Shown: positions 11,726 through 50,000 of the stretch, piece after piece
Layout: every line of letters starts with the position of its first letter
Position numbering within the stretch: position 1 is the first letter of the stretch
IMG/VR virus record: IMGVR_UViG_3300025018_000187
Location: 1 to 52,919 of that record
Reading direction: 5' to 3' (one strand)
Source: a virus
Taxonomy: Duplodnaviria > Caudoviricetes
Length of the DNA stretch: 52,919 nt
Translations under genes and position numbers: made by a program
Notes under the pieces: generated by a model
Told to the model about the DNA's origin: nothing
What the model saw: only the letters and a program-made list of their open reading frames with translations
Database searches by the model: none

Positions 11726-14700
11726 ATGAGTAATATAAATCAAAAAGAAATAATAATTAAGGAAATACAAAATTTCCTTGAAGGTCACAACACAGAAGTT
11801 AAATACCTTGTAAACGTAGAGGTAAGTCGTGACAAAAAAGAAGCAACTTGCTTCTTTCAAAAACCAAACGGTGAGTCGTGGATTGAAATGATACCGTTTA
11901 CTCCATTCATATATATAAAAGATTTAAAAGCAGAGGGTTATCAGTTATATGGTGGTGACAAAGGGTTACAATCATCTATGATGTTAAAATATGGTATTAG
12001 TATTACCAAAATGAAAACTGGTAATCAACCAAGATTAGAAAATGGATATAAATATAAAGTAACAACCACTGGTACTATTAACGATATATTCAATTTCTTC
12101 CAACAGGGTGGTATGTATCCATATGAAAAAAAATACGGTGCTGATGGTAATCCTATACAAGATAAGAAAAGTAGTAGGTATGCATATAGATTTATGCATT
12201 TATTTAACATACCTAAACCAGACGAACAATTCTTTATTTCCACTGGTATTAGATTATTTAAAGGTCTTGAAGAATATAAAGATGTTCATAGACTAACCTT
12301 CGATATTGAGACAACTGGTTTAAGACCTGAAATTTCACGTGTCTTTGCCATTGGTGTAAGAGATAATAGAGGTTTTGAAATTGTGTTAGAAGCTGATAAA
12401 CTGGACGATGATGATTCTGAACGTAGATTAATACAAGATTTTTTTAACATAATTAAAGTAATTGAACCTGCTGTAATTACTGGTTACAACTCTGAAAATT
12501 TTGACTTTTATTATTTATTTGGTAGAGGTAGTAAGGAATATCTTAATATTGATTGGAAGAAAATACCTACAAGTCGTAACGAAAAAATTCAGTACAGACG
12601 TAATAAAAACGCAACGTTAAAAGTAGGTAACACCAAAGAAGATTATGTTTCAACAATCATGTGGGGTTATAATGTAATTGACACACAACATGCTGCTAAA
12701 AGAACTGCTGCTGTAAACACTGATTTGAAAAACACTAAGTTAAAGTACGTGGCTAAATTCGAAGGTATTGCCAAAGAAAATCGTATGTACATAGAGGGTG
12801 ATTTTATTGGTAAAATGTGGCGTAATAATAAAATACATATAATTAACCCATTTAACAACAACTATATTCAAGTACCTGAAAAACATCAAGAAATTGCTAG
12901 TAAATTGTTATTATTGCAACAAAATAAACCCGATTTATCAGAGGTTGATTATATTACATATAGAAATGCTTTCTTAAAAGAAGATGACGAATTTGTTAAA
13001 TGGTTTAGAACAAATGTTATTCGACTATTCATTGACGATGAATCAGAAAAACCAGTTATCAATTTTATTGAGGGTAAAGACATTTTAAGAAGATATTTGC
13101 TTGACGACCTTTGGGAAACTGAACAAGTGGATAATCTTTATAATCAATCGTCATTCTTATTAGCTAAATTAGTTCCTACTAATTTTGCACGTGTATCTAC
13201 TATGGGTAATGCTGCTGTTTGGAATCTATTAATGACAGCATGGAGTTACGAAAACAATTTGGCAATACCTCAACCAGATGTTGCTGAAAACTTTTCGGGT
13301 GGTTTGGCACGTTGTTATAAAAAAGGATGGACGAACAGATTGGTCAAGATTGACTTTGCCTCGCTATATCCAATGATTCAACTTACTTGGGGTGTATTCC
13401 CAATGTTTGATATTACAGGTGTAATTGAGAAGATGCTTACATATATGACAACCATTCGTAACATCTATAAGAAACTTGCAAATGGTGATAGTTTATTAGA
13501 AGAGGAAATTTCATTAATGGAAACAATCGACCATGAAACATATGATAAATACATTAATAATTCATTTACTAATGAAGAACGTAAAATGTATAAAACCAAA
13601 CAGTTACCAATTAAGATATTGAACAACTCATTATTTGGTGCTTTGGGTTCTGCATTCGCATTTAACTGGTCTGATAATACTTGTGCAGCACGTATTACTT
13701 GTACAGGAAGAATTTATTTACGTCATGTTATTACTTGGTTTAAACAATTTGGTTGTGAGGCATTATTGGCTGTAACTGATGGTGTTAACTTTGGTATTCC
13801 AGATTATACAAATCTAATAGTTACCGAAGAAGGTGTTACAAAGGTTAGGGGTATGGTTAAAATAGAAGAAGCATGGAAATATAATGGTAAGATTGGTGTA
13901 TCAGCATTAATCGAGAAGTTTAATATTGAAATAGAAACCAAACATGAAGAAGAATCTGTAACGTATGATAGTCCTATCTATATATTAGACAGTAATAATG
14001 AAATAGATATAATACCTATTTGTGAAATGTTTAATGATAATTCAGATGATTTGGATTTAACAAAAGAAAGAGATTTCTCAGAAAAAAATTATAAGGTATT
14101 AACAAAAAGTGGTTGGTCTAAAGTTAATTATGTTTTTAAACATAAAACAAACAAAGCTATTCATAGAATAGAAACAAAAGACAGATTAATAAATGTTACT
14201 GAGGACCATTCGATTTTTCAAAACAATATTGAGATAAAACCAAAAAACATAAAAAAATATGATAATATTGATGTTGTTAATATACCTAAATTTAGTGGTA
14301 ATGTTAGTGTAGATATTGAAGAGGCTTGGTTGTTTGGGTTTTTCTTTGCTGATGGAAGTTCTGTATTTTCAAAAAGAAATAACATTAAATTAAAATCAGG
14401 GAAAGAAAGTAATTTAATTAGAAAATCTTGGAAAATTTCAAATACTGATGTTGAATTACTCAAACAAGCTAAAAATATTTTAGAAAAAAAATATAAAGTT
14501 CATTCCAAAATAAAATCAAGAAAAGAAAGTCAAAGAAAATCAAACAATGTTAAAGAATTATTTGAACTCACCTGCTTTGATAGTGAGTTGTCAAAAAAAT
14601 ATTCAAACATATTTTATACTACATATAGAGAAAAAAGAATACCAAAAACTATTTTAAATTCGGGTGATGATATAAAAAGAGCGTTTTTAAGGGGTTCGTT

Positions 14701-16573
14701 TGATGGCGATGGATATTATTTGTCTCTTTTTGATGTTGATGGGTTTGGTAATAAGACATATATAGGAATGGCAGGAATTGCTTACTTATTAAATAGCATT
14801 GATGTTGAATTTCGAGTATCAACAAGAAAAGACAAAGAAAGTTTTATTAATTTTAGATTTGATAAAGAATATAATGAAAAATATAGAAATTTTATATCGT
14901 CTAATATAAAAACAAATATTGTATCAAATAATAAAATAATTAATAAATATCAAAATACGTATGTATATGATATTTCAACAGAAGATGAAACATTTGTTTC
15001 TGGAATTGGGGGTATATTATGTCATAATACATCTACAAAGTGTTTCATTTCTGTCGATAACGATGGTGAGTTTTTAGCTTGTCTTAACCTTTCAAGAATT
15101 AACTATGCTTTGCTTATTGAAGATAAAGATAAGAAAACAGGTAAAATAAAAAATAAGGTTAAACTTACTGGTAATACAATTAAATCTAAAACCATGTCTG
15201 AATACATTGAAGACTTCATTGAAAAGGGGTTTGAATTAATTTTGAATGGTAAAGGTGCTGAATTCGTAGAATATTACTATCAATATGCCGAAGATATTTA
15301 CTATATGCAAATACCGTTGAAAAAAATGGCTTCTAAAAATAAAATGAAAAGAACCATTAAACAATATTTGAATCGTGGTAAGGATAAAACTGGTAAGCAA
15401 AAAGCAAGTCAAGCACATATGGAACTCATAGTTGCTGACCGTCTTACAAAAGCTAGAGAAATTTTTAAACAAAAGTTTGATGAATTACTTGCATCAGATA
15501 AGATTAAGAAGAAAGATATTGAAAAATATTCTGAGGTTGAAATATTAACTGCTGTTGATGTATGGATGCCACCAGAACCTGAATTAGATTCGATGTTGTA
15601 TCATATTAACATAGGTGAACGTAAATCACACGGTGATGTTAAGAAAGACCCAATAACTGGTGAAATGATATTCAGAGCAAAATTGATTGACATTAAAGAT
15701 TTAGAAGAAAATCCTGATTTGAAGGGTAATTATAATGTTGAAAAATATCTTGATGCTTTTAACACACGTGTTAAAGTACTTTTGGATGGTTTTGATGTGG
15801 ATGTACAAAAAAATATTTTAGTTAAAATTGTTGTTAAAACAACCGAAGATGCTTCTGGTAAGAAAATTAAAATCAGAGAATTGAAGAAGGAAACATTCAC
15901 AAAAGAACAAATGCAATTGAGAAATTTCGATTTAGATGATTTTGATGAATCAATGCATTTAGAAAGAAAAGAAATTATCTTTTGGAATAGATATGGTTAT
16001 GACCCATATATGGTTTGGAATGGTTTTAAAACCGTTGATGATGAAAAACATGGAATATTAACACCTGAAATATATAATAATGCATTAAAATATCTTTCAG
16101 ACCAAATGGAAAAATCTGGAAAACCTAGATTAAAATCTGTTAATGATAAATATGGTAAGGGTGATTATGTTTTATTTAAAAATGCTAACATTACCAAAAC
16201 ATATCGAGAAATAACTAATCATATATTTAGTATTGGCTATCATAATGGTGAACATATTGAAATATTACGTGAAAATGTATCAGTTCCAAAATCACAAAGT
16301 GAAATAGAAATGGAGGTTAAATTAGAAAAACTTAGAGTACAGGATAGTGATTTGTTAGATGATAAACAAAAAGAATATCTTAATGCAAAAGAAGAAAGAA
16401 AACAATTATTCACTGCTTTTAAAAAGAAATGGGGTATTCCTGATGAATATACAGAAGAAAGATTGTATAACGAAGCACCCAAGTCTAAATTAGCTTTTGA
16501 TGATTTTGTGACAGAGCATTCGAATGTGGTGGAAGATGTAGAATATTTGAATATAGATGATGGGGATTTTTAA
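11726..16573 (+). CDS. Family B DNA polymerase with 3'-5' exonuclease, containing an intein
   Basis: ExoI FDIETTG, ExoII GYNSENFD, ExoIII YLLDD; motif A IDFASLYP; motif B KILNNSLFG; motif C AVTDG. Confidence 0.93.
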   Translation: MSNINQKEIIIKEIQNFLEGHNTEVKYLVNVEVSRDKKEATCFFQKPNGESWIEMIPFTPFIYIKDLKAEGYQLYGGDKGLQSSMMLKYGISITKMKTGNQPRLENGYKYKVTTTGTINDIFNFFQQGGMYPYEKKYGADGNPIQDKKSSRYAYRFMHLFNIPKPDEQFFISTGIRLFKGLEEYKDVHRLTFDIETTGLRPEISRVFAIGVRDNRGFEIVLEADKLDDDDSERRLIQDFFNIIKVIEPAVITGYNSENFDFYYLFGRGSKEYLNIDWKKIPTSRNEKIQYRRNKNATLKVGNTKEDYVSTIMWGYNVIDTQHAAKRTAAVNTDLKNTKLKYVAKFEGIAKENRMYIEGDFIGKMWRNNKIHIINPFNNNYIQVPEKHQEIASKLLLLQQNKPDLSEVDYITYRNAFLKEDDEFVKWFRTNVIRLFIDDESEKPVINFIEGKDILRRYLLDDLWETEQVDNLYNQSSFLLAKLVPTNFARVSTMGNAAVWNLLMTAWSYENNLAIPQPDVAENFSGGLARCYKKGWTNRLVKIDFASLYPMIQLTWGVFPMFDITGVIEKMLTYMTTIRNIYKKLANGDSLLEEEISLMETIDHETYDKYINNSFTNEERKMYKTKQLPIKILNNSLFGALGSAFAFNWSDNTCAARITCTGRIYLRHVITWFKQFGCEALLAVTDGVNFGIPDYTNLIVTEEGVTKVRGMVKIEEAWKYNGKIGVSALIEKFNIEIETKHEEESVTYDSPIYILDSNNEIDIIPICEMFNDNSDDLDLTKERDFSEKNYKVLTKSGWSKVNYVFKHKTNKAIHRIETKDRLINVTEDHSIFQNNIEIKPKNIKKYDNIDVVNIPKFSGNVSVDIEEAWLFGFFFADGSSVFSKRNNIKLKSGKESNLIRKSWKISNTDVELLKQAKNILEKKYKVHSKIKSRKESQRKSNNVKELFELTCFDSELSKKYSNIFYTTYREKRIPKTILNSGDDIKRAFLRGSFDGDGYYLSLFDVDGFGNKTYIGMAGIAYLLNSIDVEFRVSTRKDKESFINFRFDKEYNEKYRNFISSNIKTNIVSNNKIINKYQNTYVYDISTEDETFVSGIGGILCHNTSTKCFISVDNDGEFLACLNLSRINYALLIEDKDKKTGKIKNKVKLTGNTIKSKTMSEYIEDFIEKGFELILNGKGAEFVEYYYQYAEDIYYMQIPLKKMASKNKMKRTIKQYLNRGKDKTGKQKASQAHMELIVADRLTKAREIFKQKFDELLASDKIKKKDIEKYSEVEILTAVDVWMPPEPELDSMLYHINIGERKSHGDVKKDPITGEMIFRAKLIDIKDLEENPDLKGNYNVEKYLDAFNTRVKVLLDGFDVDVQKNILVKIVVKTTEDASGKKIKIRELKKETFTKEQMQLRNFDLDDFDESMHLERKEIIFWNRYGYDPYMVWNGFKTVDDEKHGILTPEIYNNALKYLSDQMEKSGKPRLKSVNDKYGKGDYVLFKNANITKTYREITNHIFSIGYHNGEHIEILRENVSVPKSQSEIEMEVKLEKLRVQDSDLLDDKQKEYLNAKEERKQLFTAFKKKWGIPDEYTEERLYNEAPKSKLAFDDFVTEHSNVVEDVEYLNIDDGDF
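13955..15028 (+). mobile_element. Intein with LAGLIDADG endonuclease in DNA polymerase (358 aa)
   Basis: Starts SVTYDSPIYI; block B VTEDHSI; LFGFFFADG and FLRGSFDGDG; ends YVYDIST...LCHN followed by Thr. Confidence 0.9.
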
Positions 16574-20995: not shown

Positions 20996-21706
20996 ATGGG
21001 AAATAATAAAATAGATTTAAATATCATTAAAGAACAAATAAGTAAAAGAAGACATGAAGTGGGTGCTACCCCAGAGCAAAAAAAACAGAATAGAGATTCA
21101 TTTTTAAATGAATTATTACATTCAAGAAACAATGGTGTCCCTACAAAAGCGTCTGAAAAAATTAAAATTGTTGAAAAGGTATCTGACAAAGTTGTTAATG
21201 GTAGAGTACCTGCTGAACACAGTGGTAAATATGTAGACCCTAATTTATTAGCACATGTCAATACACCTAAACAATCATCACAATATAATCCACAACCAGT
21301 GAATGAGGGATATGATGAAAGAGACAATAGATTTGATTCACAAATAAATAGTTTGTATGACCAATATAGAACAGGTGCTCAACCACAGCGACCACAACCA
21401 AATCAGTTTGGTATGCTTAGTGAACAACAAGTAGCACAATTAATGTCTGAACGTGGTGGTACTCAAGTACCACAAAATGGGTTAATCACAGAACAAGTAG
21501 GTAGTGCTATAAATAACTTTATAAATGAAAATATGGGTGTTATTGTAGAACAAGCAATGAAGAATGCAGTAATGGAAATGTATTCGATTGAAAGAATTAA
21601 AAAAACATTGGATGAAAACAGAGATTTGATACAAAAAATTGTAATTGACACAATAAAAATGTTAAGTGACCGTAAAAAAGCACAAGCAGCAAAAACTGAA
21701 AATTAA
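20996..21706 (+). CDS. Hypothetical protein (Gln/Pro-rich centre, helical C-terminus)
   Basis: 236-aa ORF; VNE, LSE, ITE, INE motifs. Confidence 0.7.
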   Translation: MGNNKIDLNIIKEQISKRRHEVGATPEQKKQNRDSFLNELLHSRNNGVPTKASEKIKIVEKVSDKVVNGRVPAEHSGKYVDPNLLAHVNTPKQSSQYNPQPVNEGYDERDNRFDSQINSLYDQYRTGAQPQRPQPNQFGMLSEQQVAQLMSERGGTQVPQNGLITEQVGSAINNFINENMGVIVEQAMKNAVMEMYSIERIKKTLDENRDLIQKIVIDTIKMLSDRKKAQAAKTEN

Positions 21707-21731
21707 TTAGTATTTATGTTTATAGCAGTTT

Positions 21732-21761
21732 AACCACAGTAGTTTCTGCTGTGGTTTTTTT
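21732..21761 (+). terminator. Intrinsic terminator-like hairpin immediately upstream of the polyvalent gene
   Basis: AACCACAGTAG-TTT-CTGCTGTGGTT followed by a T run. Confidence 0.75.
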
Positions 21762-21772
21762 ATTAAAAAAAT

Positions 21773-24700
21773 ATGGATTTACAAGAATCAAGCACAAGTA
21801 GAGAGTTAGATTTAAATGAAAATACAATCAATAATGTGATTAATAGAGAAATATGGACTATGAATGAAAATGCGGGTCAATTTAATATTAAGGAATTTGA
21901 AAACTTAAATTCGTTTGCAGCAAGAAAAAAGTATGCAGACCAAACACTACAAAAAATAGCCTCTGGTTCAGGTAGACACGTCTATGGTATAGACTCAACA
22001 AAAGTGTTAAAATTAGCAGCAAATCCAAAGGGTATTGCCCAAAATGAAGTAGAGAGAAACATGGGTATGAATGATTATTATGCCAAAGATTCTGTGGCAG
22101 AAGTTTTTGATGCTGATAAAAATAACCTATGGTTGGTTTCAGAAAGAGCAAAAAAAATAACACCTAATCGATTTTTTCAATTAACAGGTGTTAAAATACA
22201 AGAACTTGCACAATGGTTGGGTCATATGTATCGTTCAAATAAGCCAAGACGTTTTGGTGGATATATTCCAGCAAATGTATCACCTGAAAGGGATGCAGAA
22301 CTATGGGAAAATGAATTTGCTGTAAGTATTATGGATTTAATGAATACTTATGATTTACCAGATGGGGATTTAGGTAGAATATCTTCATATGGTGAGGTTA
22401 TTCGTGATGGTCAACCAGAAGTGGTTATGACTGATTATGGGTTAACTCATAATGTATGGGCTGCTAATTATGAAAAACCAAGTAGGTGGAATGAGGGTGA
22501 AGTAAATGAGTTGAGAGACACCAACATGGAAGATGAATTAACTAACTTCGTAGTGGGTAGAGAATTATATGATGGTGGTTATGGTGGTTTTGCTATTATG
22601 CTTCAAAGTGTTGGTGATGGTTTGGTATATGAAGCAAAAATTGAATCCGACATCGGTTGGTTTGACTATGATGAAAGATTAGCACCAGACCAAAACGATT
22701 TGTTTGTATCTCATTTGGAAGTATTTGACAAAGGACAAGGACACTTCAAAGAGTTAATGAGTGATATTGAAGAATTTGCCAGAACACATGGTAAAAAAAC
22801 AATAGTACTTGAACCAGATATTACACAAGGTAAAGAATATACAAAATTTTTAAATAAATTATACAGTGATTACGGTTTTGTACCATACGAAAACGACCCT
22901 TCTCTTTTAATTAAAACATTAGACGAAGGATTGGCTGATAGTTTGGTTGGTACTAATAAAATGGATTTACCTATTGGTAAAGCATTTACATTTGGAGAAA
23001 ATTTAAATGAATATACAGAAGACTATACAAATATTCCTGAAAAGGTATTAAATAGTGCCATTAGTTATATTGAAAATTTTGATAATTTGCGTGGTGATTT
23101 AAATAGTCATATTTCTGACTTATATAGAAACTATCTGATTAATGTTCAGAATTATCAAAAGGGTTTAGAAACGGCAAATGATGACGTTAAATATTATAAT
23201 AATTTAATGAAACTACAAGATTTCTTAAAGAGATTTGGTTTGGTTAGTGAAGATTTAGAATATAATTTTGTGTCAGATGCATCACCCGAATCTGATAAAT
23301 ATGTTATGGAAGATGGTACATCATTATATATGACTCAAAATGGTTCAGATGATGAATTAGTAGATGAAGACCAAACTTTGATTAATAAAAATGAGTTGGA
23401 TGGTCTTATGAATATTATTAGTAGTGTATTTGGTATTATTTCACCACATAGTTTAAGCAACAACAAAAAAAATAATAAAAACAGTAAAATTTTAGGTGAT
23501 TTTTTTAATAAAGGAGATTTTGAATATGTTATTGGAATTGGTGAATGGGATGGTAATACAAGCACACAAGAACAATCTTACATCGTAAAAAAACCTGATA
23601 GGTTGGATAACGGTCAATTTATTAGATTAATGAAAAAAATATCTGATAAATTTGAACAAGAAGCATTTATTGTTGGTGAAAATAAGAATGCTTTTCTTAT
23701 TAGTAAAGATGGTAGTATTGAGGAATTGGGGAGTATTGAATTCAATGATAATGAATATGTTGGTTTTGATTTTGTTGGAACTAATAAAGAAGAAATAGAC
23801 GAAGCAGGTATTAACCGATTGACCAATCACATGAAAGGTGATTTTGCTATAATGTCGGCAAATAGAAATGAAAATACTCTTGCTCAAAACAAAATAGCAA
23901 ACGATACTTTGTCAAGAGAATTACAAGCAAAAAAAGCTGGTTTTACTCCACTAATAGGTCATTGGGAAGAATTATCAACAGGTCAACAAGGTACTGTACC
24001 AGTTAGAGAACAATCATTTTTTATTCCTAGACCAGAATTTATGACATCCGAAACATTTAAGAATTGGATAATTGATTTGGGTAAAAAAAACAAACAAGAC
24101 GCTGTGTTAATTGGAATTAATGGTGAAGCTGCATTATATTATATGAATGGTAATATTGAAAAGAAAGGTAAACCAACATTCACAAACATAGGTAAAGCAT
24201 ATTCACAAATAAGAAGAAAACCAGATGCAACGTTTGTGTTCGAAGAAAGAATTAAATCTTGGATGCCTAAAATGACAGAACCTGTCATTAAAAAATCTTG
24301 TATGTTGGGTGGTAAGGCAGATGGTACTTCTGAACCATGTAGTCAGGGTGATACTGGTGCTGTATCATATAAAAAATTACAAGATGGGCACTCACATAAA
24401 CCAAATACTGTTAATGTAGCAGAAGGGTATATTAGTGATATGACTTTGAAGATTGCGGCTGAAAAAAACATGCCTGTTGTAGAAAGAGACGGTAAGAAAT
24501 TCGTTAGTGTGTGGCACGGAACAACACCAGCAAATTACAAAAAAATATTAAAATCTAATAAATTTTTAGCTGGTAGTTATTTTTCTACAGACGAAAAAAC
24601 CGCAACAACATATGGTAATATGTTAATGGGTAGAGGTAAACCAGTAATAATGAATGTGTATATTGATGCAGATAAATTATATTGGGATGGTAACTATTTC

Positions 24701-27700
24701 TCAACTAATCAAGAGATAGAATATGTTAATGGATTGTATGAGCAAGAAAACCTAAATGAAATTGGTGAAGCAAACATTGAACCATATAGATTAACTGTTG
24801 ATTTAGTAACAAAAGAAGGTGTGGAGTTTTCATTTACAACTAATGATGGTGGTGAATATGTAATTCAAACAGCTTTTAATGTATTACCTAAAAGATATTT
24901 TCTTAATAACGAAACTTTAAGTGAACCAGACAAGTCTTTCTTTTATAGTGAAATGCCATTAAATATGTTAGTTATGTCGGTTAGTTATACACTACGAGAG
25001 TATCATGAAAAAATGCGTGATGGGACACCAGCAACACATAAAGATAATGTTAAAAATAGATTCAGTAAAAATATACCAGATAATTATCCAACACTTAATA
25101 CAGGTGAACCATTAAAAATATTATCTACTGTTGCGTTAGCAACAAAAGCAGCATATAAAAAAGCAGCAGAATTATATGGAACTGTTAACATGGTTTCTTA
25201 TATTCCTAAAAAGGATAATGCGGAAGACCAAAGACGTGCAAATATAAATCAAATGTTTATTGAAAAGGGATTACAGAAAAATGGTATTCCAGTTAAAAGA
25301 ACAATTAAAGATGGTGGAATAATATATTATGTGATAAGTGACGGTGAAATTAATAAAGGTGTCGAAGAAGGTGTTGGTGATAAGTTCTTACAAAACAGAG
25401 GGATTATGCCTGATGAAGAAGATGAATTCAACAAAGAATATTATGCAGCACAAGAAAATATCATTACTAATTTAAAAACATATCCAGAACAGAAAGATAA
25501 TTTTTTAATAAAAAATCCTAAAAATATATATAATTTACAATGTGATGTAAGGGGTGTTATTGATAGTAAAGGAAATTTATATGTTGCATCAAGAAGTGAC
25601 CAAAAATGGTTTACACATATAAATTTAGTCGATGCTTTAATTGATGAAAAATTATTAGTACAACAATACCAATGGTGGCTTAAATTACCAGAGAATTTTG
25701 TAACAGTACAAAGAAACGGTTGTACTAATGAATTCATGGTTGGTGAATCTAACGAATGGTATAGTATGAGTCCAGAAAAAATAGAAAATAGAAAATATTT
25801 TGATAGATTTTTAGATTTAGCAAAAAAAATAAATCCTAAATTAGAGTTTCCACATAAAAAAATAACAGAATTATCTGAAATGGGTGTTGAAGAAGGTGTT
25901 GGTGATAAATTCTTACAAAATAGAGGGGTTATGCCTGATGAAGAACAAGAATTTAACAAACAATATGATATTTTAAATCAAGAAAATGTTGTTGCTGATA
26001 TTACAAGGTATGATAATATTCCTAACTATATTATAAAAAACCCAAAAAATTTAAAAGGGTTTAAATGTGATGTTAGAGGAATTATAGATAATAAAGGGAA
26101 TCTGTATGTTCAAACTAATAGTGAAGATGATTTGTTACATGATAATATGATTGAAGAGTTAAATCATTTAGGTGTTTTAAAATCTGTCGATGAATGGTGG
26201 AAAAAACCACCCGTTGAATTTATAACTGTTCATAGAGAAGGATGCACCAACCAATTTATGGTTGGAGAATCACAATTTTTATATGGTCATGATGCAGACA
26301 CATCAATTTTAGACAAATTTGGGTTATCTCAGGAAGAATCGAATTTAATATTTCATACATTTTTAGATAGAGCTAAAATGATTAATCCTAAGTTATCTTT
26401 TCCATATAAAAAGATTAGTGATTACAATAGAAAAATTGTTTCACCATCAATGAATGAAGAAATGAGTTCTAATAAAGAAAGTGTTATTCAACATTTTATT
26501 AATTGGGCAACGAAGAGAATTGGTCTTGAAGTAGCACCTGAAATAGTTTTTGTAGATGGTGATGAATATAGTAAAGAAAAAGCATCATTAGGTACGTTTT
26601 ATGGTGATTTGGATAAAATTGAGGTGTCTGTACACCAAAGATTGACAGCAGATATTCTTAGAACGTTGGCACATGAGTTGGTACATAAGAAACAACAGTT
26701 GGATAATCGTGATATGGATAATAGTGTTGGTTCGGAAGTTGAAAATGAAGCAAATGCAATTGCAGCAATTTTAATGAAAGATTATGCTAAAATAAATAAA
26801 GAAATATTTAGTGAGTCTATCAATGTTAAAAACATAATTACTGAGGCAATAAAAGGAATCTTAAAAGAAGAAAAAATTAACTACGGTTGGTTAATGGCAT
26901 ACTTTGATATTCCAAAATGGGATAGTATTATTGGTAAGATTAAGGACGAAGATTTATATGATGATGGTTCAGGAACATTCGGAAAAGAAGATGAACCCCA
27001 TATTACCATTCTTTATGGTTTCCATAAAGAAATCACGGCAGATAGTTTTAAAGATGTTATAGAAAACATAAAAGAACCCATTGAAGTAGAATTAGAGGGT
27101 ATTTCTATGTTTGAGAATCCTAATTTTGATGTTGTTAAGATAGATGTACGTCCAACAGCAGAAGTGTTAAAATTACGTAAACAAGTTGAAACCTTTCCTG
27201 CAACCCTTACGTATAAAGATTATCATCCACACATGACAATTGCTTATGTGAAAAAGGGTGAAGGTAAAAAATATGTACATAAATTTAAAAAACCAATAGT
27301 AGTGAAAAGCGATTTGTTAGTGTTTTCAGATAAAAATAAAAATCAAACACAGTTTCCTGTGAGACAAAAATTACTTGATGAAGGTGAAATGAATATAAAT
27401 GAGAATCCAAAAATAACTCAATTTATTGAAGAAATGAGAAATAAACCTTTTATGAAAGCAATTATGAGTCAAGGAGGTGAGGTATATGCTGTTGGTGGTA
27501 TAGTACGTGATATTTTATTGGGTAAACCAAATAAAGATATTGATTTGGTGGTTAGACTAATACCATTTGAAAAGCTGCTTAACATACTTAGAAATTTTGG
27601 TAGAGCTAATTTAGAAGGTGAATCGTTTAGTGTTATTAAGTTTATTAATAAACAAGATGGTCTTGATTACGATATAGGGTTACCTAGAACTGAACAAGCA

Positions 27701-29026
27701 ACTGGTGGTGGTCACAAAGATTTTGATGTAAGTAGTGATGAAAACTTACCAATTGAGCAAGATTTGACTCGTAGGGATGCTAAAATAAACTCTATGGCAA
27801 TCAATATAAACACAGGTAGTTTCATAGACCCATTAAATGGTCTTGAAGATATTAAGAATAAAGTCATGTCTATGACTAATTCACAAGCGTTTATTGACGA
27901 CCCATTACGTATGATGCGTATGATTCAGTTCGCAGCTAGATTTTCCTATGACATTGAACCAGAAACTATGAAGTTGATTCAAGCCAATGCTGGTAATATC
28001 AGCAAAATGGCGAAGGAGAGAAGTTTGGGTGAAATTATGAAAATTATTGATAAGAATGGTGATAAAAGAAAAGGTGCTCAACTATTAAAGGATAGTAAAA
28101 TATTTAAAGAATTATTTGGTTTCGAACCAAAACAATCTACTTTTGATAGAAATCCTTTTGAAGCAGTTAAAACACTTGGAGAATACTTTTACTTATTAAC
28201 AAGTAATGCTCAAAGCCCTTCTGGGTTATTTATAAACACGTTTATGACTGAAAAATCAACAGGAAGTCCAGTTTATCGTGAAATATTAGCTTTGGAAACA
28301 GCATTTAAAAACGTTAGTAATAATAAACCCAAGAATAGATTGGTGGTGAATTTAATGGCAAAAACTGCTCCGCAAACTTTAGACAGTAAGATATTACCAC
28401 AGGAATTGCAAGTAGCGGTTAAAGAATTGAAGTCACCTAAGTACCCATTGAATGTTGGTGAGTTAGAGATTAATGGTAATGATTTAATTGCAATGAATAT
28501 ACCACCAAAAAATAGGGGTGTTATACTAAATGAAATAATAAGAAACATATATAATGATAGATTAAATAATAATAGAGAAGAACTTTTAAACTTTGTTAAG
28601 CAAAATAGTTCTTCTCTTAATGAATCTGAAATGAAAAATAAAAAAAGAAACATTACATATAGTGCAGTGGTTTTGGATGAAAGTTCTAGGTCAATGTTGC
28701 TTGCGAATCTTGCTGGTAATATTCCTAATGGTTGGGAAAAAATAGCACATCATATGACTATTAATATGGGAAAAATAAAACCTGAATGGGAAAAATATTT
28801 AGGTGAAAAAGTATTATTAAAAGTAAGAACAGTAGGATATAATGATAAAACAATGGCAGTTGGTGTAGAAACTGTTGTTCCTAGTGTTACTGAAATACCA
28901 CACATTACTATTGCTATTAATAGAAAAAATGGTGGTAAACCCTATGATTCTAATAAAATAACAAATTGGAAATCAATTGCTTTTGGTTTAGAATTAACTG
29001 GTGAGGTGGTTGAAGTACCTTGGTAA
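21773..29026 (+). CDS. 2417-aa polyvalent multi-enzyme protein (kinase, GNAT, 2x SAM-lyase-like, ART, duplicated unknown domain, zincin, Acb1-like 2H, CCA-adding enzyme, 2H CPDase)
   Basis: One continuous ORF; catalytic motifs of about nine enzyme domains recognised (see sub-features). Confidence 0.9.
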   Translation: MDLQESSTSRELDLNENTINNVINREIWTMNENAGQFNIKEFENLNSFAARKKYADQTLQKIASGSGRHVYGIDSTKVLKLAANPKGIAQNEVERNMGMNDYYAKDSVAEVFDADKNNLWLVSERAKKITPNRFFQLTGVKIQELAQWLGHMYRSNKPRRFGGYIPANVSPERDAELWENEFAVSIMDLMNTYDLPDGDLGRISSYGEVIRDGQPEVVMTDYGLTHNVWAANYEKPSRWNEGEVNELRDTNMEDELTNFVVGRELYDGGYGGFAIMLQSVGDGLVYEAKIESDIGWFDYDERLAPDQNDLFVSHLEVFDKGQGHFKELMSDIEEFARTHGKKTIVLEPDITQGKEYTKFLNKLYSDYGFVPYENDPSLLIKTLDEGLADSLVGTNKMDLPIGKAFTFGENLNEYTEDYTNIPEKVLNSAISYIENFDNLRGDLNSHISDLYRNYLINVQNYQKGLETANDDVKYYNNLMKLQDFLKRFGLVSEDLEYNFVSDASPESDKYVMEDGTSLYMTQNGSDDELVDEDQTLINKNELDGLMNIISSVFGIISPHSLSNNKKNNKNSKILGDFFNKGDFEYVIGIGEWDGNTSTQEQSYIVKKPDRLDNGQFIRLMKKISDKFEQEAFIVGENKNAFLISKDGSIEELGSIEFNDNEYVGFDFVGTNKEEIDEAGINRLTNHMKGDFAIMSANRNENTLAQNKIANDTLSRELQAKKAGFTPLIGHWEELSTGQQGTVPVREQSFFIPRPEFMTSETFKNWIIDLGKKNKQDAVLIGINGEAALYYMNGNIEKKGKPTFTNIGKAYSQIRRKPDATFVFEERIKSWMPKMTEPVIKKSCMLGGKADGTSEPCSQGDTGAVSYKKLQDGHSHKPNTVNVAEGYISDMTLKIAAEKNMPVVERDGKKFVSVWHGTTPANYKKILKSNKFLAGSYFSTDEKTATTYGNMLMGRGKPVIMNVYIDADKLYWDGNYFSTNQEIEYVNGLYEQENLNEIGEANIEPYRLTVDLVTKEGVEFSFTTNDGGEYVIQTAFNVLPKRYFLNNETLSEPDKSFFYSEMPLNMLVMSVSYTLREYHEKMRDGTPATHKDNVKNRFSKNIPDNYPTLNTGEPLKILSTVALATKAAYKKAAELYGTVNMVSYIPKKDNAEDQRRANINQMFIEKGLQKNGIPVKRTIKDGGIIYYVISDGEINKGVEEGVGDKFLQNRGIMPDEEDEFNKEYYAAQENIITNLKTYPEQKDNFLIKNPKNIYNLQCDVRGVIDSKGNLYVASRSDQKWFTHINLVDALIDEKLLVQQYQWWLKLPENFVTVQRNGCTNEFMVGESNEWYSMSPEKIENRKYFDRFLDLAKKINPKLEFPHKKITELSEMGVEEGVGDKFLQNRGVMPDEEQEFNKQYDILNQENVVADITRYDNIPNYIIKNPKNLKGFKCDVRGIIDNKGNLYVQTNSEDDLLHDNMIEELNHLGVLKSVDEWWKKPPVEFITVHREGCTNQFMVGESQFLYGHDADTSILDKFGLSQEESNLIFHTFLDRAKMINPKLSFPYKKISDYNRKIVSPSMNEEMSSNKESVIQHFINWATKRIGLEVAPEIVFVDGDEYSKEKASLGTFYGDLDKIEVSVHQRLTADILRTLAHELVHKKQQLDNRDMDNSVGSEVENEANAIAAILMKDYAKINKEIFSESINVKNIITEAIKGILKEEKINYGWLMAYFDIPKWDSIIGKIKDEDLYDDGSGTFGKEDEPHITILYGFHKEITADSFKDVIENIKEPIEVELEGISMFENPNFDVVKIDVRPTAEVLKLRKQVETFPATLTYKDYHPHMTIAYVKKGEGKKYVHKFKKPIVVKSDLLVFSDKNKNQTQFPVRQKLLDEGEMNINENPKITQFIEEMRNKPFMKAIMSQGGEVYAVGGIVRDILLGKPNKDIDLVVRLIPFEKLLNILRNFGRANLEGESFSVIKFINKQDGLDYDIGLPRTEQATGGGHKDFDVSSDENLPIEQDLTRRDAKINSMAININTGSFIDPLNGLEDIKNKVMSMTNSQAFIDDPLRMMRMIQFAARFSYDIEPETMKLIQANAGNISKMAKERSLGEIMKIIDKNGDKRKGAQLLKDSKIFKELFGFEPKQSTFDRNPFEAVKTLGEYFYLLTSNAQSPSGLFINTFMTEKSTGSPVYREILALETAFKNVSNNKPKNRLVVNLMAKTAPQTLDSKILPQELQVAVKELKSPKYPLNVGELEINGNDLIAMNIPPKNRGVILNEIIRNIYNDRLNNNREELLNFVKQNSSSLNESEMKNKKRNITYSAVVLDESSRSMLLANLAGNIPNGWEKIAHHMTINMGKIKPEWEKYLGEKVLLKVRTVGYNDKTMAVGVETVVPSVTEIPHITIAINRKNGGKPYDSNKITNWKSIAFGLELTGEVVEVPW
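21869..22495 (+). other. Domain: protein-kinase-like
   Basis: Gly loop ASGSGRHVY; VLK Lys; NEVE helix-C Glu; DGDLG..S catalytic loop; DYG as DFG equivalent at 22433. Confidence 0.75.
22634..22927 (+). other. Domain: GNAT acetyltransferase
   Basis: LFVSHLEV..KGQG (motif A), then L...LY..YGF (motif B). Confidence 0.75.
23369..24247 (+). other. Domains: two tandem SAM-lyase-like (T3 SAMase/DUF3293-like) units, 23369-23803 and 23804-24247
   Basis: FAIMSANR...N...L...G.WEE...EQSFFI...LG...QDAVL parallels T3 SAMase VSAFR..N..G.Y.E..EE..EQDCVL. First copy: FGIISPH...GEW...EQSYIV...FEQEAFI. Confidence 0.65.
24425..24760 (+). other. Domain: ADP-ribosyltransferase (H-Y class)
   Basis: VWHGT (His at 24515), GSYFST, A..Y pattern. 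Confidence 0.7.
25358..26416 (+). repeat. Tandemly duplicated ~175-aa domain of unknown function (copies start at 25358 and 25883)
   Basis: Both copies have GVEEGVGDKFLQNRG.MPDEE.EFNK.Y, IKNPKN, CDVRG.ID.KGNLYV, H, WW, F.TV.R.GCTN.FMVGES and FLD.AK.INPKL.FP.KKI. Confidence 0.92.
26462..26815 (+). other. Domain: zincin metallopeptidase
   Basis: LRTLAHELVH (HExxH at 26672-26686) with downstream ENEA third ligand. Confidence 0.85.
26873..27382 (+). other. Domain: 2H phosphoesterase resembling T4 Acb1 (gp57B)
   Basis: EPHITILYG and YHPHMTIAY HxT motifs with Acb1-like context. Confidence 0.8.
27404..28624 (+). other. Domain: class II tRNA nucleotidyltransferase (CCA-adding/poly(A) polymerase family)
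   Basis: YAVGGIVRDILLG..KDIDL; DLTRRDAKINSMA; DPLNG..D; DDPLRMMR..FAARF; ER; C-terminal LEINGNDL...G.IL. Confidence 0.9.
28625..29026 (+). other. Domain: second 2H phosphoesterase (tRNA-ligase CPDase-like)
   Basis: HHMTI and PHITI motifs; GGKPYDSN.I..W ending. Confidence 0.75.
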
Positions 29027-32252: not shown

Positions 32253-34787
32253 ATGAACAATAACGATAAAATTAAAATATTATTTGTAAATTTTGATACG
32301 GCAGGTGTAAACTATTTTCGTACACAAACCCCAGCTACTCAATTAGAACGTGACCATTCGGATAAATTTAGAGTTGAATTTAATTCAGAATTGGATTTTA
32401 ATAATCCTAAAACTATTGATTATTTGAAATCGTTTCATATTATTCACTATCACAGACAATTAGTGGGTGGTACTCCTAATATGCTAAGATTAGCAAATGA
32501 ACTTAAAGAAGCTAATGTTACGCTTGTAATGGATATTGATGATTATTGGTACTTAGATAAGTCTCACCCTTATTATTCTATTTCACAAGAAAGAAGATTA
32601 TGGGAAGAGATTTTAGATAACCTAAAAATTGCTGATTATGTAACAACTACATCTGACTATTTTGCGGAAGAAATAAGAAAAGTAACTGGTAAAGATAATG
32701 TGGTTGTATTGCCTAACTCTGTTGACCCAACATGGATGAAACAATTTAAAAATAATTGGAAACCAGACCCTGACGGATTAGTTCGTATTACATATATGGC
32801 TGGGTCCAGCCATAAAGGTGATGTTGAACAATTAAAAGGCGCAATTGCCAGATTAAATAATGATAAACAAACCAAAGGTAAATTTAAGATACAATTAGCT
32901 GGTTGGGATACAGAAGGTAATACCACAGACATTACATTCAATCAAGAATTTAGAAAGGTTCTTCAAAGAATTGGTATTTGGGATAAAGATATGGTTAATG
33001 CTGTGAATAAATCAAGAGGTAATGTAGATGTATTGACAAGAGTACCTAATGATGTTAAAGAAGCGTTTAGAAATAAAGTATTCACTACTAAAGAAAGACC
33101 TATTGATTCTGAACAATCAATATATTTAGTTTATGAAAATATCCTTACTGATAATCATAGTATTATTGAAGATGATGAATATATAAAATGGTTGAATAAC
33201 TACGAACGTAATACGTATCCGAATGAGGGTAATTTTGCACGTAGATGGACTCGCAAAGCAAATATATATGCAGAAGTATTAAATGAAACTGACATTGCAA
33301 TAGCACCATTAGCAGACCATGAGTTTAATCATATGAAGTGTGTTGTTGGTGATACATTAATAAACACAAATAAAGGTATTATTAAAATAAAAGATTTGGT
33401 TGAAAATAAATATGATGACCTGAAAATATTAAATAATGATGTTATATCATATTTTAAATATGATAATGAAAAAACGTTAAAATTAAAAACAAATATTGGT
33501 GTTGAGTTAGAAGGTACACCAACACATAGAATTTTTGTTGATGATAAATGGAAACCAATGTCTGAATTTGGTGTTGGAGATAAAATAGAATTAACATCTT
33601 TTGATTTCGAATCAACTGAATATCAAAAAATTCATTACCCTATGTTGTTAAGTAAAAGGGTTGATGACATTACACTTGAATGTGCAACAAAAGAAATGAT
33701 GCCATCAATAACCATCAATGAAGACTATGGTAGATTTTTTGGATATATGATTGGTGATGGTCATTTTTCAACAAATTATTTAAGAATTTCATGTGATAAA
33801 AGATATGATGATGTAGTGAAAGATATAGTTAAATTATCCAATAAAATGGGGTTACATCCAAAATTAATTTATGACAAAATTGATAAAAGATGTAAAACTA
33901 CAATTAGTAAAGAAGGATATGGTGTTGATATAAATTTAACATCAAAACATTTGGCAAGTATTTGTATTCAAGAAAACCTAAAAAATGAAAATGGTAAAGT
34001 ATTTGAAATTCCCCATTTTATTCTTAAATCACCTAAATCAGTGATAAAAGAATTTTTACGTGGTTTGTTTGAAGCAGATGGTACAGTTTCAACTGATGGT
34101 TCATTTGTTTCATTAACAAGTAAAAGTTTAATATTAATGAAACAAGTACAAACATTATTACTTGGATTTGACATAATAGGTAAGATTGATGTTGCACCCA
34201 ATAAACGCTATAAGAAAAATTATTATAATTTACGTCTTACAAGAGCAGCATCGGATATGTTTTATAAAGAAATTGGTTTTGTCTCAGAAATTAAACAAGA
34301 AAAACTTAAACTACTAACAGAAAAACCACATAGTAATAGGTTTCAAGAACAAAATTTCGAGATTATAGTTACTGATATTATTGAAAATACAAATGATGTA
34401 TATGATGTGGAAGTAGATAATATACATAAATATAATGGTAATGGCATTATAAACCATAACTCTAATTTGAAACAAGTTGAATGCTGGTCACGTAAATTAC
34501 CAGTTGTTTGTACTGATGTGATACCTTATAATGTTGATGGTCGTCATATGGAGAATTGTGTATTGATTCCTACTTCGAATAGTAAAGGTGATAAAAGAAA
34601 GGAAAAGAATTTAGATAAGTATTGGTATAAGTATCTTAAACAACTTATTCTTAATCCTGTTTTACGTAAAGAATTAGGTGAAAATTTACATAGAGATTTT
34701 TCCGAAAAATATAACCTAAAAAATGTTACTAATAAACGTGCAGAATTTTATGAATCTGTAGTTATGGAACAATTGAATATTGTATAA
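32253..34787 (+). CDS. GT-B (GT4-like) glycosyltransferase containing an intein
   Basis: GVNYFR..P; DIDDYW; ADYVTT; LPNSVD; GSSH..D; DIAIAPL...FNHMK|SNLKQVE...PVV.TD..PY. Confidence 0.8.
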   Translation: MNNNDKIKILFVNFDTAGVNYFRTQTPATQLERDHSDKFRVEFNSELDFNNPKTIDYLKSFHIIHYHRQLVGGTPNMLRLANELKEANVTLVMDIDDYWYLDKSHPYYSISQERRLWEEILDNLKIADYVTTTSDYFAEEIRKVTGKDNVVVLPNSVDPTWMKQFKNNWKPDPDGLVRITYMAGSSHKGDVEQLKGAIARLNNDKQTKGKFKIQLAGWDTEGNTTDITFNQEFRKVLQRIGIWDKDMVNAVNKSRGNVDVLTRVPNDVKEAFRNKVFTTKERPIDSEQSIYLVYENILTDNHSIIEDDEYIKWLNNYERNTYPNEGNFARRWTRKANIYAEVLNETDIAIAPLADHEFNHMKCVVGDTLINTNKGIIKIKDLVENKYDDLKILNNDVISYFKYDNEKTLKLKTNIGVELEGTPTHRIFVDDKWKPMSEFGVGDKIELTSFDFESTEYQKIHYPMLLSKRVDDITLECATKEMMPSITINEDYGRFFGYMIGDGHFSTNYLRISCDKRYDDVVKDIVKLSNKMGLHPKLIYDKIDKRCKTTISKEGYGVDINLTSKHLASICIQENLKNENGKVFEIPHFILKSPKSVIKEFLRGLFEADGTVSTDGSFVSLTSKSLILMKQVQTLLLGFDIIGKIDVAPNKRYKKNYYNLRLTRAASDMFYKEIGFVSEIKQEKLKLLTEKPHSNRFQEQNFEIIVTDIIENTNDVYDVEVDNIHKYNGNGIINHNSNLKQVECWSRKLPVVCTDVIPYNVDGRHMENCVLIPTSNSKGDKRKEKNLDKYWYKYLKQLILNPVLRKELGENLHRDFSEKYNLKNVTNKRAEFYESVVMEQLNIV
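33339..34460 (+). mobile_element. Intein with LAGLIDADG endonuclease in glycosyltransferase (374 aa)
   Basis: Starts CVVGDTLINT; block B GTPTHRI; FGYMIGDG and FLRGLFEADG; ends VYDVEV...NHN followed by Ser. Confidence 0.93.
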
Positions 34788-48704: not shown

Positions 48705-50000
48705 ATGGCATTTATATTAAAAAAGAAAATATTTATTAATATTACTACTACGACTACAACTGTAGCACCGACAACTACTACGACTACAACAGTAGCACCT
48801 ATAACTACGACTACAACTGTAGCACCTATAACTACGACTACAACTGTAACACCGACAACTACGACTACAACAGTTGCTCCTACAACAACTACGACTACTA
48901 CCGTTGCACCTATAACCACTACGACTACTGTAGCACCCCCAATGGGTTTTAATCAGCATGTTTGGGGTGGCATTGAAACAACCGATGGTAAATATATATT
49001 TACTGGTCAGTTTACTCAATATGATTTAACACCAATAAATAGAATTGCTAAAATTAACACAAATGGTTATATCGATAGCACGTTTAATGTTGGAAGTGGG
49101 TTTAATGTACTACCATATTTTATTATTAATACGGATGGAAAATATTTAGTGGGTGGTCAATTTACTTCTTATAGTGGTGTAACCACAAATGGTTTGATTA
49201 AATTAAACACCGATGGTAGTATTGATAATACATTAAATATTGGAAGTGGATTCGTAGGAATTCCATTTAACGGGATTGTTACTACTGATGGCAAGTATTT
49301 AATAGTTGGTAACTTTACTCAATATAGTGGTACAACAGCAAACAGAATAATAAAATTAAACACCGATGGTAGTATTGATAATACATTTGATTCGGGCACT
49401 CGTTTTAATAATGGAACTCAAAGCACTATTGAACCAGTTTCGGGTAAATATTTAATTGGTGGTTTCTTTACTCAATATAGTGGTGCAACAGCAAACAGAA
49501 TAATAAGATTAAATAGTGATGGAACCATTGATAATACGTTTGATTCGGGCACTGGTTTTAATAATGGTGTTTATAACGTAACACTAACAAGTGATAATAA
49601 ATATCTTATAACAGGTATATTCACTCAATATAGTGGTGTGACAGCAAATAGAATAATAAAACTAAATACTGATGGAACTATCGACAATACGTTTAATACA
49701 GATACTGGTTTTAATGGTGCTGTTTATTCAGTAGCATTAACGAGTGATAATGGATTCTTAATCGGTGGTGATTTCACTCAATATAGTGGTGCAACAGCAA
49801 ATAGAATAATAAAACTAAATACTGATGGAAGTATCGACAATACGTTTAATATGGGTACTGGTTTTAATGATATCACATATTATTCAATTTTTGAAACTAT
49901 TGATAATAAATATGTTATTGGTGGTTGGTTTACCTCGTATAATGGAGATACAAAAAATTCTGTTGTGAAGATTGAATTAGATGGCACACCTATTTGGTAA
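48705..50000 (+). CDS. Thr-rich N-terminus plus delta-60/DUF5122-type beta-propeller repeats
   Basis: (TTTTTVAP)n at 48744-48939; about six repeats of DGKY..GG.FTQYSG..ANRIIKLN.DG.ID.TF..G.GFN. Confidence 0.8.
   Translation: MAFILKKKIFINITTTTTTVAPTTTTTTTVAPITTTTTVAPITTTTTVTPTTTTTTVAPTTTTTTTVAPITTTTTVAPPMGFNQHVWGGIETTDGKYIFTGQFTQYDLTPINRIAKINTNGYIDSTFNVGSGFNVLPYFIINTDGKYLVGGQFTSYSGVTTNGLIKLNTDGSIDNTLNIGSGFVGIPFNGIVTTDGKYLIVGNFTQYSGTTANRIIKLNTDGSIDNTFDSGTRFNNGTQSTIEPVSGKYLIGGFFTQYSGATANRIIRLNSDGTIDNTFDSGTGFNNGVYNVTLTSDNKYLITGIFTQYSGVTANRIIKLNTDGTIDNTFNTDTGFNGAVYSVALTSDNGFLIGGDFTQYSGATANRIIKLNTDGSIDNTFNMGTGFNDITYYSIFETIDNKYVIGGWFTSYNGDTKNSVVKIELDGTPIW

Follow-up and report, generated by a model that had tools for sequence, protein, structure and literature searches.

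A phi-x-Glu motif at the module joints of a phage polyvalent protein suggests release of its enzymes by a head-maturation protease

A 52,919-nucleotide stretch of DNA from the virus record IMGVR_UViG_3300025018_000187 (Caudoviricetes; positions 1 to 52,919 of the record, hereafter the window) carries a polyvalent protein gene at positions 21773–29026 of the plus strand. The gene is a single open reading frame (ORF) of 2417 codons plus stop, with neither a frameshift nor a stop codon inside (translation table 11). About 15 modules are strung together in the encoded protein of 2417 residues (~277 kDa), and Pfam and PHROG domains span its whole length. A sequence-only reading of this DNA had described it as a likely cleaved polyprotein with prohead-protease-like sites at its domain junctions, and all 15 coordinates listed there indeed proved to be the P1 glutamate (the residue preceding a presumed cut) of a phi-x-E triplet, i.e. 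[LIVM]xE, in this one ORF. Here we confirm that phi-x-E is enriched at the module joints far above chance, with three definitions of a module border in agreement.

The N-terminal 32 residues (21773–21868; this and all following modules lie on the plus strand) contain the motifs LQE5, LNE16 and MNE32 and represent a candidate propeptide; the predicted local distance difference test (pLDDT) value of the structural model is below 50 at residues 1–16 and 23–34. This N-terminus reads MDLQE..LNE..REIWTMNE, and a start of the type M..REIWxLxE is also found in the relatives P0003, P0004, P0006 and P0014. At E32, phi-x-E is retained in 10/10 aligned relatives. The following module KIN (residues 33–287, 21869–22633; last residues VYE287) has a protein-kinase-like fold, which was modelled with pLDDT values above 90 at residues ~35–237. 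It matched phrog_4301 (E 5e-14), and Foldseek matches in the PDB were MTR kinase, APH(2''), PRPK and CDK2 (probability ~1, E 2e-3 to 1e-2); a Pfam search of the query gave no match for KIN. Residues 288–413 (22634–23011) comprise a GNAT-like stretch up to LDE385 and a 28-residue spacer ending in LNE413. This segment was poorly modelled and had no Pfam match in the query, the label being taken from PF13508/PF00583 assignments precomputed in the relatives P0002, P0006 and P0007 only. Module U1 (residues 414–513, helical) and a spacer with VME513 and VDE532 occupy 23012–23368; confident helices cover residues 417–494, homology blocks stop at residues 509–512, and pLDDT values fall below 50 at residues 495–530.

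Two S-adenosylmethionine (SAM) lyase modules follow, namely residues 533–677 (23369–23803, C-terminal end IDE677) and 678–824 (23804–24244, C-terminal end VFE824). They matched S-AdoMet_lyase (PF23780) with 31.7 and 43.7 bits, respectively, against a cut-off of 28, the scores having been obtained after cutting the sequence at the proposed motif sites. E677 lies inside a low-pLDDT linker (residues 670–679), and the linker behind the second lyase (residues 823–837) has pLDDT values below 50. The small two-Cys module (residues 825–884, 24245–24424) ends in NVAE884. E884 is the exact end of six homology blocks, as relatives read N[VI]AE and then continue with unrelated sequence. An ADP-ribosyltransferase (ART)-like module (residues 885–996, 24425–24760; C-terminal end LNE996, with LYE990 and IGE999 nearby) matched ART-PolyVal (PF18760) with 22.9 bits, below the cut-off of 31.2. 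Module U2 (residues 997–1199, 24761–25369; C-terminal end VEE1199) shows a confident fold at residues ~1001–1190 and a tail with pLDDT values below 50 (residues 1191–1199), and it was also found in P0003 and P0005.

A tandem duplicate, R1 (residues 1200–1374) and R2 (residues 1375–1562, C-terminal end MNE1562), extends over 25370–26458. The observation that the duplicated unit begins exactly at a site held: both copies open with GVGDKFLQNRG directly after VEE, at residues 1199 and 1374. In relatives, too, the R module is preceded by [MIVF]-[ED]-E|GVGDK regardless of the module upstream. This module of ~175 residues (GVGDK..NPKN..CDVRG..GCTN..MVGE) belongs to no Pfam family and occurs in 1–4 copies in relatives. 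The subsequent HEXXH module (residues 1563–1699, 26459–26869; HELVH at residue 1634, C-terminal end LKE1699) showed weak similarity to Peptidase_M78 (19.5 bits, below the cut-off of 22) and to Tox-MPTase3. A 2H phosphoesterase (residues 1700–1877, 26870–27403; LDE1870 and INE1877 at the C-terminal end) matched 2_5_RNA_ligase2 (PF13563) with 52 bits, LigT_PEase with 32.1 bits and Acb1 with 25.8 bits, the latter below its cut-off of 27; a linker at residues ~1864–1874 has pLDDT values below 50. The nucleotidyltransferase of the CCA-adding/poly(A) polymerase type (residues 1878–2284, 27404–28624; C-terminal end LNE2284) matched PF01743 with 76.5 bits and the RNA-binding family PF12627 with 33.2 bits. 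This CCA module was modelled with pLDDT values above 90, stand-alone relatives begin at its predicted P1' residue, and phi-x-E at E2284 is retained in 24/32 relatives. The protein ends with a second 2H domain similar to the cyclic phosphodiesterase (CPD) of tRNA ligases (residues 2285–2417, 28625–29023; PF08302, 25.3 bits against a cut-off of 23), which is confidently folded from residue ~2294 and whose stand-alone homologues P0015–P0017 begin with NI(A/S/T)YSAV.

The domain labels of the sequence-only reading thus stood for the SAM lyases, both 2H modules and the CCA module, all above Pfam cut-offs, whereas the kinase was supported by fold match only, GNAT by the labels of relatives only, and ART and the peptidase stayed below cut-offs. 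Judged by these predicted domains, the protein qualifies as polyvalent as defined by Iyer et al. 2017 (PMC5512222): its two SAM lyases, 2H/LigT, PolyA_pol head with RNA-binding part, tRNA_lig_CPD and kinase-like fold (Foldseek) fall within the range of 2–15 disparate domains. Of the signature domains of polyvalent proteins, ART-PolyVal and Peptidase_M78 scored below their cut-offs in the query, and the HELVH motif is present.

Searches of a protein database yielded 11 longer relatives and 19 shorter proteins as well as an identical protein encoded on a contig of 67.7 kb, and an alignment-based scan of IMG/VR yielded 170 relatives, from which 80 loci were kept, many of them on contigs of 200–370 kb. 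The non-redundant set comprised 83 proteins, and the 55 with at least 600 residues were used in the large junction test. A megablast search against a phage collection found no close DNA relative. In tblastn searches of cultured phages with the whole protein only the CCA module was matched, and with the N-terminal half only the kinase-like stretch, in two Xanthomonas jumbo phages. The best tblastn match, LR756504.1 (636 kb), was dropped as a guide genome, as its modules are separate genes and its Peptidase_S77 match was sub-threshold (24.7 bits).

Modules of the relatives occur in differing orders and combinations. Most relatives have the kinase-like module first and the CCA and 2H modules last, with a variable middle part, and in several of them the array is divided among two or three genes or single modules form genes of their own. 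The proposal that new functions are added as plug-in cassettes agrees with this finding: order and content of the modules differ between relatives while the joint motif stays.

Counted over the whole protein, [LIVM]xE was found 63 times against 49.4 +/- 5.8 in shuffled sequences and [LIVM][ND]E 16 times against 7.4 +/- 2.7. Among the 28 ORFs of the window, the polyvalent gene ([LIVM][NDE]E, z 3.5) and three small ORFs reached z values of at least 3 on either motif measure. As this excess is small, the question is one of motif position, for which borders were defined by the ends of homology (BLAST) blocks, by natural gene ends and by linkers in AlphaFold2 models. That the evidence lies in the position of the triplet and not in its number, as had been cautioned, was borne out. 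At block-end junctions of the 11 longer relatives, the motif was present in 82/106 windows (expected 42.8 +/- 4.9; 0/2000 permutations as high), and among the 55 long relatives in 395/652 junction windows (expected 179.6 +/- 11.9; 0/1000 permutations as high). The control motifs [LIVM]xD, [LIVM]xK, [LIVM]xN, [LIVM]xQ, [SAG]xE and [FYW]xE were at or below expectation in the junction windows of both tests. Glutamate alone (520/652 against 418.6) and the reversed motif Ex[LIVM] (260/652 against 171.1) were moderately raised, which indicates that the linkers are acidic; shuffling of the residues inside each +/-10-residue junction window gave 283.5 +/- 13.9 motif copies against 590 observed. In the query alone, a site was found in 13/14 junction clusters, the exception being cluster 1543–1553, whose nearest site, MNE with E1562, lies 3 residues beyond the junction window.

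Usually, both proteins carry phi-x-E at a block end though the sequence beyond is unrelated. Examples at the joint behind the kinase are ..SVSQG-GLNSDIDE|N, GGLNE|M and PGVINE|R; at other joints, x[ED]E|GVGDK is read upstream of the repeat module, and the two-Cys module is preceded by xxE|[ED]RIK and followed by N[VI]AE|. Natural gene ends gave the same picture. When the starts of split or stand-alone relatives were projected on a longer relative, 62/84 unique cases lay within +/-5 residues of a motif glutamate (random 0.25), and their C-termini lay within +/-15 residues of one in 149/170 cases (random 0.56). The stretch upstream of the module start contains the motif in the fused partners of 54/57 ORFs, and among the stand-alone ORFs only 14/57 show it within the 12 residues at their own N-terminus. 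At natural C-termini of stand-alone or split ORFs, the motif was present in the last 15 residues in 31/46 cases; in L017:3244-5235 and L026:9974-16036, the stop codon immediately follows ..ILDE and ..LLNE, respectively, which is the predicted cut point of fused relatives. As the motif stands upstream of fused starts and is often kept at natural C-termini, a cassette apparently consists of a domain, its tail and phi-x-E.

Residues 1–1199 and 1564–2417 were modelled by AlphaFold2 with alignments built from relatives. KIN, U1, both SAM lyases, U2, CCA and the last 2H module were well modelled; the GNAT-like, ART, HEXXH and first 2H modules were not, and the structural test therefore does not include the joints at residues 287, 385, 884–996, 1562 and 1699. 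All seven low-confidence linkers (residues 1–34, 495–530, 670–679, 823–837, 1191–1199, ~1864–1874 and 2287–2291) contain a site. With linker and domain limits that were set after the models had been seen, 13 motifs were counted in 159 linker residues (8.2 per 100) against 23 in 1261 residues of confident domains (1.8 per 100; Fisher p 6e-5), so that the enrichment in linkers over folded domains anticipated by the sequence-only reading was found; control motifs were flat between the two. A cruder test with all residues of pLDDT below 50, which make up a fraction of 0.306, placed 22/52 sites in them and was marginal (p 0.049), as it counted unmodelled domains as low. As shown by the 23 copies in folded domains, some of them highly conserved (E124 in 44/44 and E2137 in 35/35 aligned relatives), the triplet alone does not mark a joint.

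Anchored on every glutamate, only positions P3 and P2 differ between junction and non-junction residues. P3 was L, I, V or M at a fraction of 0.50 of junction glutamates against 0.27 elsewhere, with L and I each at 0.18 against 0.09. Family-wide frequencies at P2 were 0.19 against 0.08 for N, 0.15 against 0.06 for E and 0.09 against 0.08 for D. The suggested dominance of NE and DE forms was therefore supported in part: 9/15 listed sites are NE or DE and N is enriched at P2, but D is barely enriched and E is enriched too. E32, E413 and E884 are invariant in eight full-length relatives, and E413 as well as A883 and E884 are invariant in alignment A1. Only the glutamate of the joint sites is constant; any of L, I, V and M occurs at P3, P2 is variable and the codons are not the same, which argues for selection on the peptide and not for a DNA recombination signal. 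A relic Shine-Dalgarno sequence read as glutamate at fused gene borders was considered and rejected, as the leaders are A/T-rich without GGAG and P3 would stay unexplained. The T4 protease gp21 cuts after the glutamate of L/I-X-E (PMC9026906), and the rule of the giant phage SPN3US is A-X-E (PMC10052503). The joint motif agrees with the former and not with the latter, as [SAG]xE is unenriched.

A gp21-like protease gene was predicted to accompany such a polyprotein. No head gene or protease was found across the whole 52.9-kb window, but the gene was present in related genomes. The window and IMG/VR records share the gene order helicase, DNA polymerase, two small ORFs, polyvalent gene, polynucleotide kinase, glycosyltransferase and baseplate wedge, and the helicase, DNA polymerase and baseplate wedge are 57–63% identical to proteins of the syntenic records. 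By synteny and identity, the window is assigned to a clade of IMG/VR records of 200–370 kb. Peptidase_S77 matches above the Pfam cut-off were found in 12/15 related records, including 9/9 of those with an estimated completeness of 90% or more; the three records without a match are 54–66% complete. In genome G002, the protease has 233 residues, is 32% identical to T4 gp21 and is followed by an acidic, scaffold-like protein of 540 residues with 28 motif copies and by a Gp23-family capsid protein. The two halves of the Peptidase_S77 match lie ~1.2 kb apart within one ORF of 598–653 residues in G004 (G004:C1:214260-215930), G007, G008 and G009, which suggests that a large insertion, such as an intein or an additional domain, is present in the head protease gene there.

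Gp23-family capsid proteins were found in 9/10 related records searched. All nine have phi-x-E|S ~20 residues before a conserved (V/I)RR block (MINE|S in seven, LLNE|S in one and LLTE|S in one), and T4 gp23 reads FLTE65|A at the corresponding place, where it loses its 65-residue propeptide (PMC9026906). The capsid cleavage consensus to be expected of a T4-like protease is thus present at the place of T4 Glu65 in 9/9 proteins, and from this conservation the protease of the clade very probably keeps the T4 cleavage rule. Asparagine at P2 in 8/9 capsid proteins parallels the asparagine preference at the module joints.

The neighbours of the polyvalent gene are of phage type: tail fibre, SNF2-type helicase, DNA polymerase, NUDIX hydrolase, polynucleotide kinase, glycosyltransferase and baseplate wedge. 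The G+C content of the window is ~29%. The DNA polymerase ORF (11726–16573, plus strand) has 1615 residues against ~1230 in relatives, which suggests an insertion, and the glycosyltransferase (32253–34787, plus strand) is interrupted by an intein with a LAGLIDADG endonuclease. Five HNH homing-endonuclease genes (at 3029, 17127, 34878, 41921 and 42949) were found within 53 kb. Near tail and baseplate genes, a protein of 431 residues (48705–50000, plus strand) with seven repeats of the DUF5122 beta-propeller type (E 1e-73) may serve in receptor binding. The polyvalent gene is directly preceded by a Q/N/E-rich ORF of 236 residues (20996–21706, plus strand), which contains 11 copies of [LIVM]xE against 4.1 expected (z 4.1, the maximum of the window) and is syntenic in 46/80 related loci; its product may be a further substrate of the protease or a helper associated with the core.

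Expression signals were also inspected. With TATAAATA as the T4-type late promoter consensus, 11 forward copies were found in the window and 0 upstream of the polyvalent gene. A promoter-like motif resembling GTATTTATA precedes many genes of all classes and therefore says nothing on the timing of expression. A recurring (G/C)TATTTATA(A/T)-rich motif 10–60 nt before many starts of structural and non-structural genes (2169, 5511, 16615, 20996, 29944, 31293, 34878, 37966, 42949 and 50043) is a candidate phage promoter. Between the 236-residue ORF and the polyvalent gene (~21708–21772), a terminator-like hairpin (CCACAG..CTGTGG and a T run) stands right before the start codon with a promoter-like AGTATTTATG upstream of it, an arrangement which may allow regulated read-through.

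The interpretation that we favour, if only slightly, is that the protein is an effector polyprotein made by an uncultured jumbo myovirus whose head is of the T4 type, and that this polyprotein is packaged and cut by a gp21-family protease at its linker motifs so that the enzymes are ejected. From circumstantial evidence we infer that the protein is packaged and cleaved, which protease cleaves it and that the products are ejected. According to this model, the precursor would be built into the prohead core, where the gp21-family serine protease would cut after the glutamate of exposed linker motifs, the same enzyme trimming the capsid protein and dismantling the scaffold. The predicted products are ~15 enzymes or modules of roughly 60–410 residues together with short spacer peptides, and motif copies buried in folded domains would remain uncut. 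The freed enzymes would stay in the head, leave it with the DNA and act at the start of the next infection, like T4 Alt and the internal proteins; new functions would be gained as cassettes of domain, tail and phi-x-E. Two precedents exist: T4 packages the ART Alt, which gp21 cuts at both ends and which is then ejected (PMC9026906), and a polyvalent protein of 2811 residues was detected in phi24B virions by mass spectrometry (bioRxiv 10.64898/2026.04.10.717836).

Several observations weigh against packaging and cleavage in the head. The polyvalent gene is placed among replication and RNA-repair genes with no head module, and the window as a whole lacks head and protease genes, as described above. 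In LR756504.1 and in more distant relatives the modules are encoded by ordinary genes of their own; the enzymes could thus work in the cell that produces them without ever being packaged. Sites of the query often have V or M at P3 (VYE, VDE, VFE, VAE, VEE twice, VME), while T4 prefers L or I. The motif copies within folded domains imply that cutting depends on exposure, which is an assumption, and the pooled junction counts treat related proteins as independent though their ancestry is common. A shared targeting signal was also considered. Most relatives start with MTY(E/D/A)EF (e.g. L014:9971 and L072:9971), which resembles the start MKTYQEFIAE of T4 IPII/IPIII (T4 record), and Tyr4 and Phe7 of the T4 capsid-targeting peptide matter for targeting (PMC9026906). 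A search for MTYx(E/D)F in five genomes, however, found the pattern once in each, on the polyvalent gene only (5/5), and the N-terminus of the query differs; the idea of a shared capsid-targeting start MTYxEF was therefore left unsupported.

Alternatively, the linkers may be cut at the motifs by the embedded HEXXH module, before packaging or after injection, or by another cytoplasmic Glu-specific protease of phage or host, and the gene would then serve the production of enzymes in equal amounts. We consider this unlikely. Release by embedded zincin-like peptidases was proposed for polyvalent proteins (PMC5512222), and the HELVH of the query with its weak Peptidase_M78 and Tox-MPTase3 similarity would fit. 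An embedded peptidase conserved together with the cleavage sites, as self-processing would have it, was not found: HEXXH occurs in only 4/55 long relatives, whereas the joint motif is family-wide. Furthermore, the information of the motif lies on the non-prime side (P3, P2 and P1), and zincins mostly read P1'. The surrounding replication and RNA-repair genes and the modules that are separate, presumably cytoplasmic, genes elsewhere would suit this alternative, but the joint motif equals the site conserved in the capsid protein of the clade itself; as the search of related genomes covered proteases of the S77 type only, the alternative is no more than weakened.

Improbable to a similar degree is the explanation that no cutting occurs and the cassettes conserve phi-x-Glu in their C-terminal tails for another role, such as a scaffold or core contact, a folding or linker element or the signature of a recombination border. 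In its favour, stand-alone and split ORFs keep the motif at their C-termini, which means that the motif stays with the upstream module even if no further part follows that could be removed; in addition, the N4 virion RNA polymerase and the plasmid polyvalent proteins ArdC/TraC1 are transferred uncut (PMC5512222). However, a motif at a natural C-terminus fits C-terminal trimming as well, as in T4 Alt, the fixed glutamate with differing codons points to selection at the peptide level, the sites are located in segments that the models predict with low confidence and that are presumably flexible, and the motif coincides with the known cleavage rule of the protease family which these phages encode. 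Finally, chance or an artefact, i.e. a common triplet in a protein rich in E, N, L and I or BLAST blocks that end on conserved residues, is very improbable: it could draw on the small whole-protein excess and on the enrichment of E and Ex[LIVM] at junctions, but the motif excess persists after shuffling within windows, control motifs are flat, and natural gene ends and AlphaFold linkers, which do not depend on BLAST block ends as such, agree.

How polyvalent proteins are processed has been an open question since their description in 2017, and this family offers a testable answer with a defined motif, defined residues and a named candidate enzyme. If the preferred model of cleavage by the head protease is true, tailed DNA phages use a true polyprotein strategy and their capsid protease also releases injected effectors; one targeting event would load many enzymes, and effectors would be added via cassette exchange, diversifying the injected arsenal. 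In its broadest form, for which we see the chances as evenly balanced, the proposal is that of a capsid-loaded effector polyprotein with a readable cleavage code: a widespread clade of T4-headed phages of 200–370 kb would produce from one precursor, in fixed proportion, at least a dozen enzymes for counter-defence, host takeover and RNA repair, to be freed by the head-maturation protease, and any cassette ending in the triplet could be swapped. With the motif, the mature injected proteins could be predicted for jumbo phages that are known by the hundreds from uncultured sources. U1, U2, the R repeat and the two-Cys module are marked by it as candidates for independent effectors, and foreign proteins to be loaded into T4-type heads might be designed by the same rule.

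In RNA-virus polyproteins, one translation product gives rise to several enzymes which are released at short conserved linker sites. Host range, enzymes and protease type differ from the family described here, for which cutting inside the assembling capsid of a DNA phage is proposed, and the likeness is one of analogy only. This analogy was made explicit for polyvalent proteins, along with domain shuffling, delivery with the DNA and proteolytic release as proposals (PMC5512222). The proteins of Iyer et al. likewise unite unrelated domains in one phage polypeptide (kinase, ART, GNAT, metallopeptidase and nucleotide- or RNA-directed enzymes) and are extensively shuffled. Their processing was assigned to embedded peptidases, either a zincin metallopeptidase (MPTase) or a C-terminal assemblin-like domain, and an inter-domain cleavage motif is not described in the parts of that account available to us, where the word 'linker' is absent. 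In the present family, by contrast, HEXXH is rare, the joints follow an explicit phi-x-E code, and the candidate protease is a separate head-maturation enzyme.

T4 Alt, IPI, IPII and IPIII are comparable in that they are packaged enzymes or anti-defence proteins which gp21 cuts after L/I-X-E and which are ejected with the DNA; their propeptides double as capsid-targeting sequences (PMC9026906). They are, however, separate small proteins, each with its own targeting peptide, whereas here ~15 modules and ~18 internal sites would be contained in one precursor of 2417 residues. The ejection (E) proteins of SPN3US and phiKZ are similar in that a large ejected mass is cut after glutamate, several times in each propeptide, by a prohead protease that is essential, and differ in that the motif is A-X-E (S, A or G at P3) and the cuts remove propeptides but do not divide a polyprotein into enzymes (PMC10052503). 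Polyvalent proteins, their shuffling and their proposed injection and proteolytic release were already known (PMC5512222), as was the processing of packaged T4 proteins by gp21. In the literature, we found no paper that ties polyvalent proteins to a prohead-protease site code, and the family itself may already stand in the supplementary architecture lists of PMC5512222. New in comparison with these systems are the statistically supported joint motif, its match to the capsid cleavage site of the clade itself, the near-absence of an embedded peptidase and the size of the family with its 170 IMG/VR relatives.

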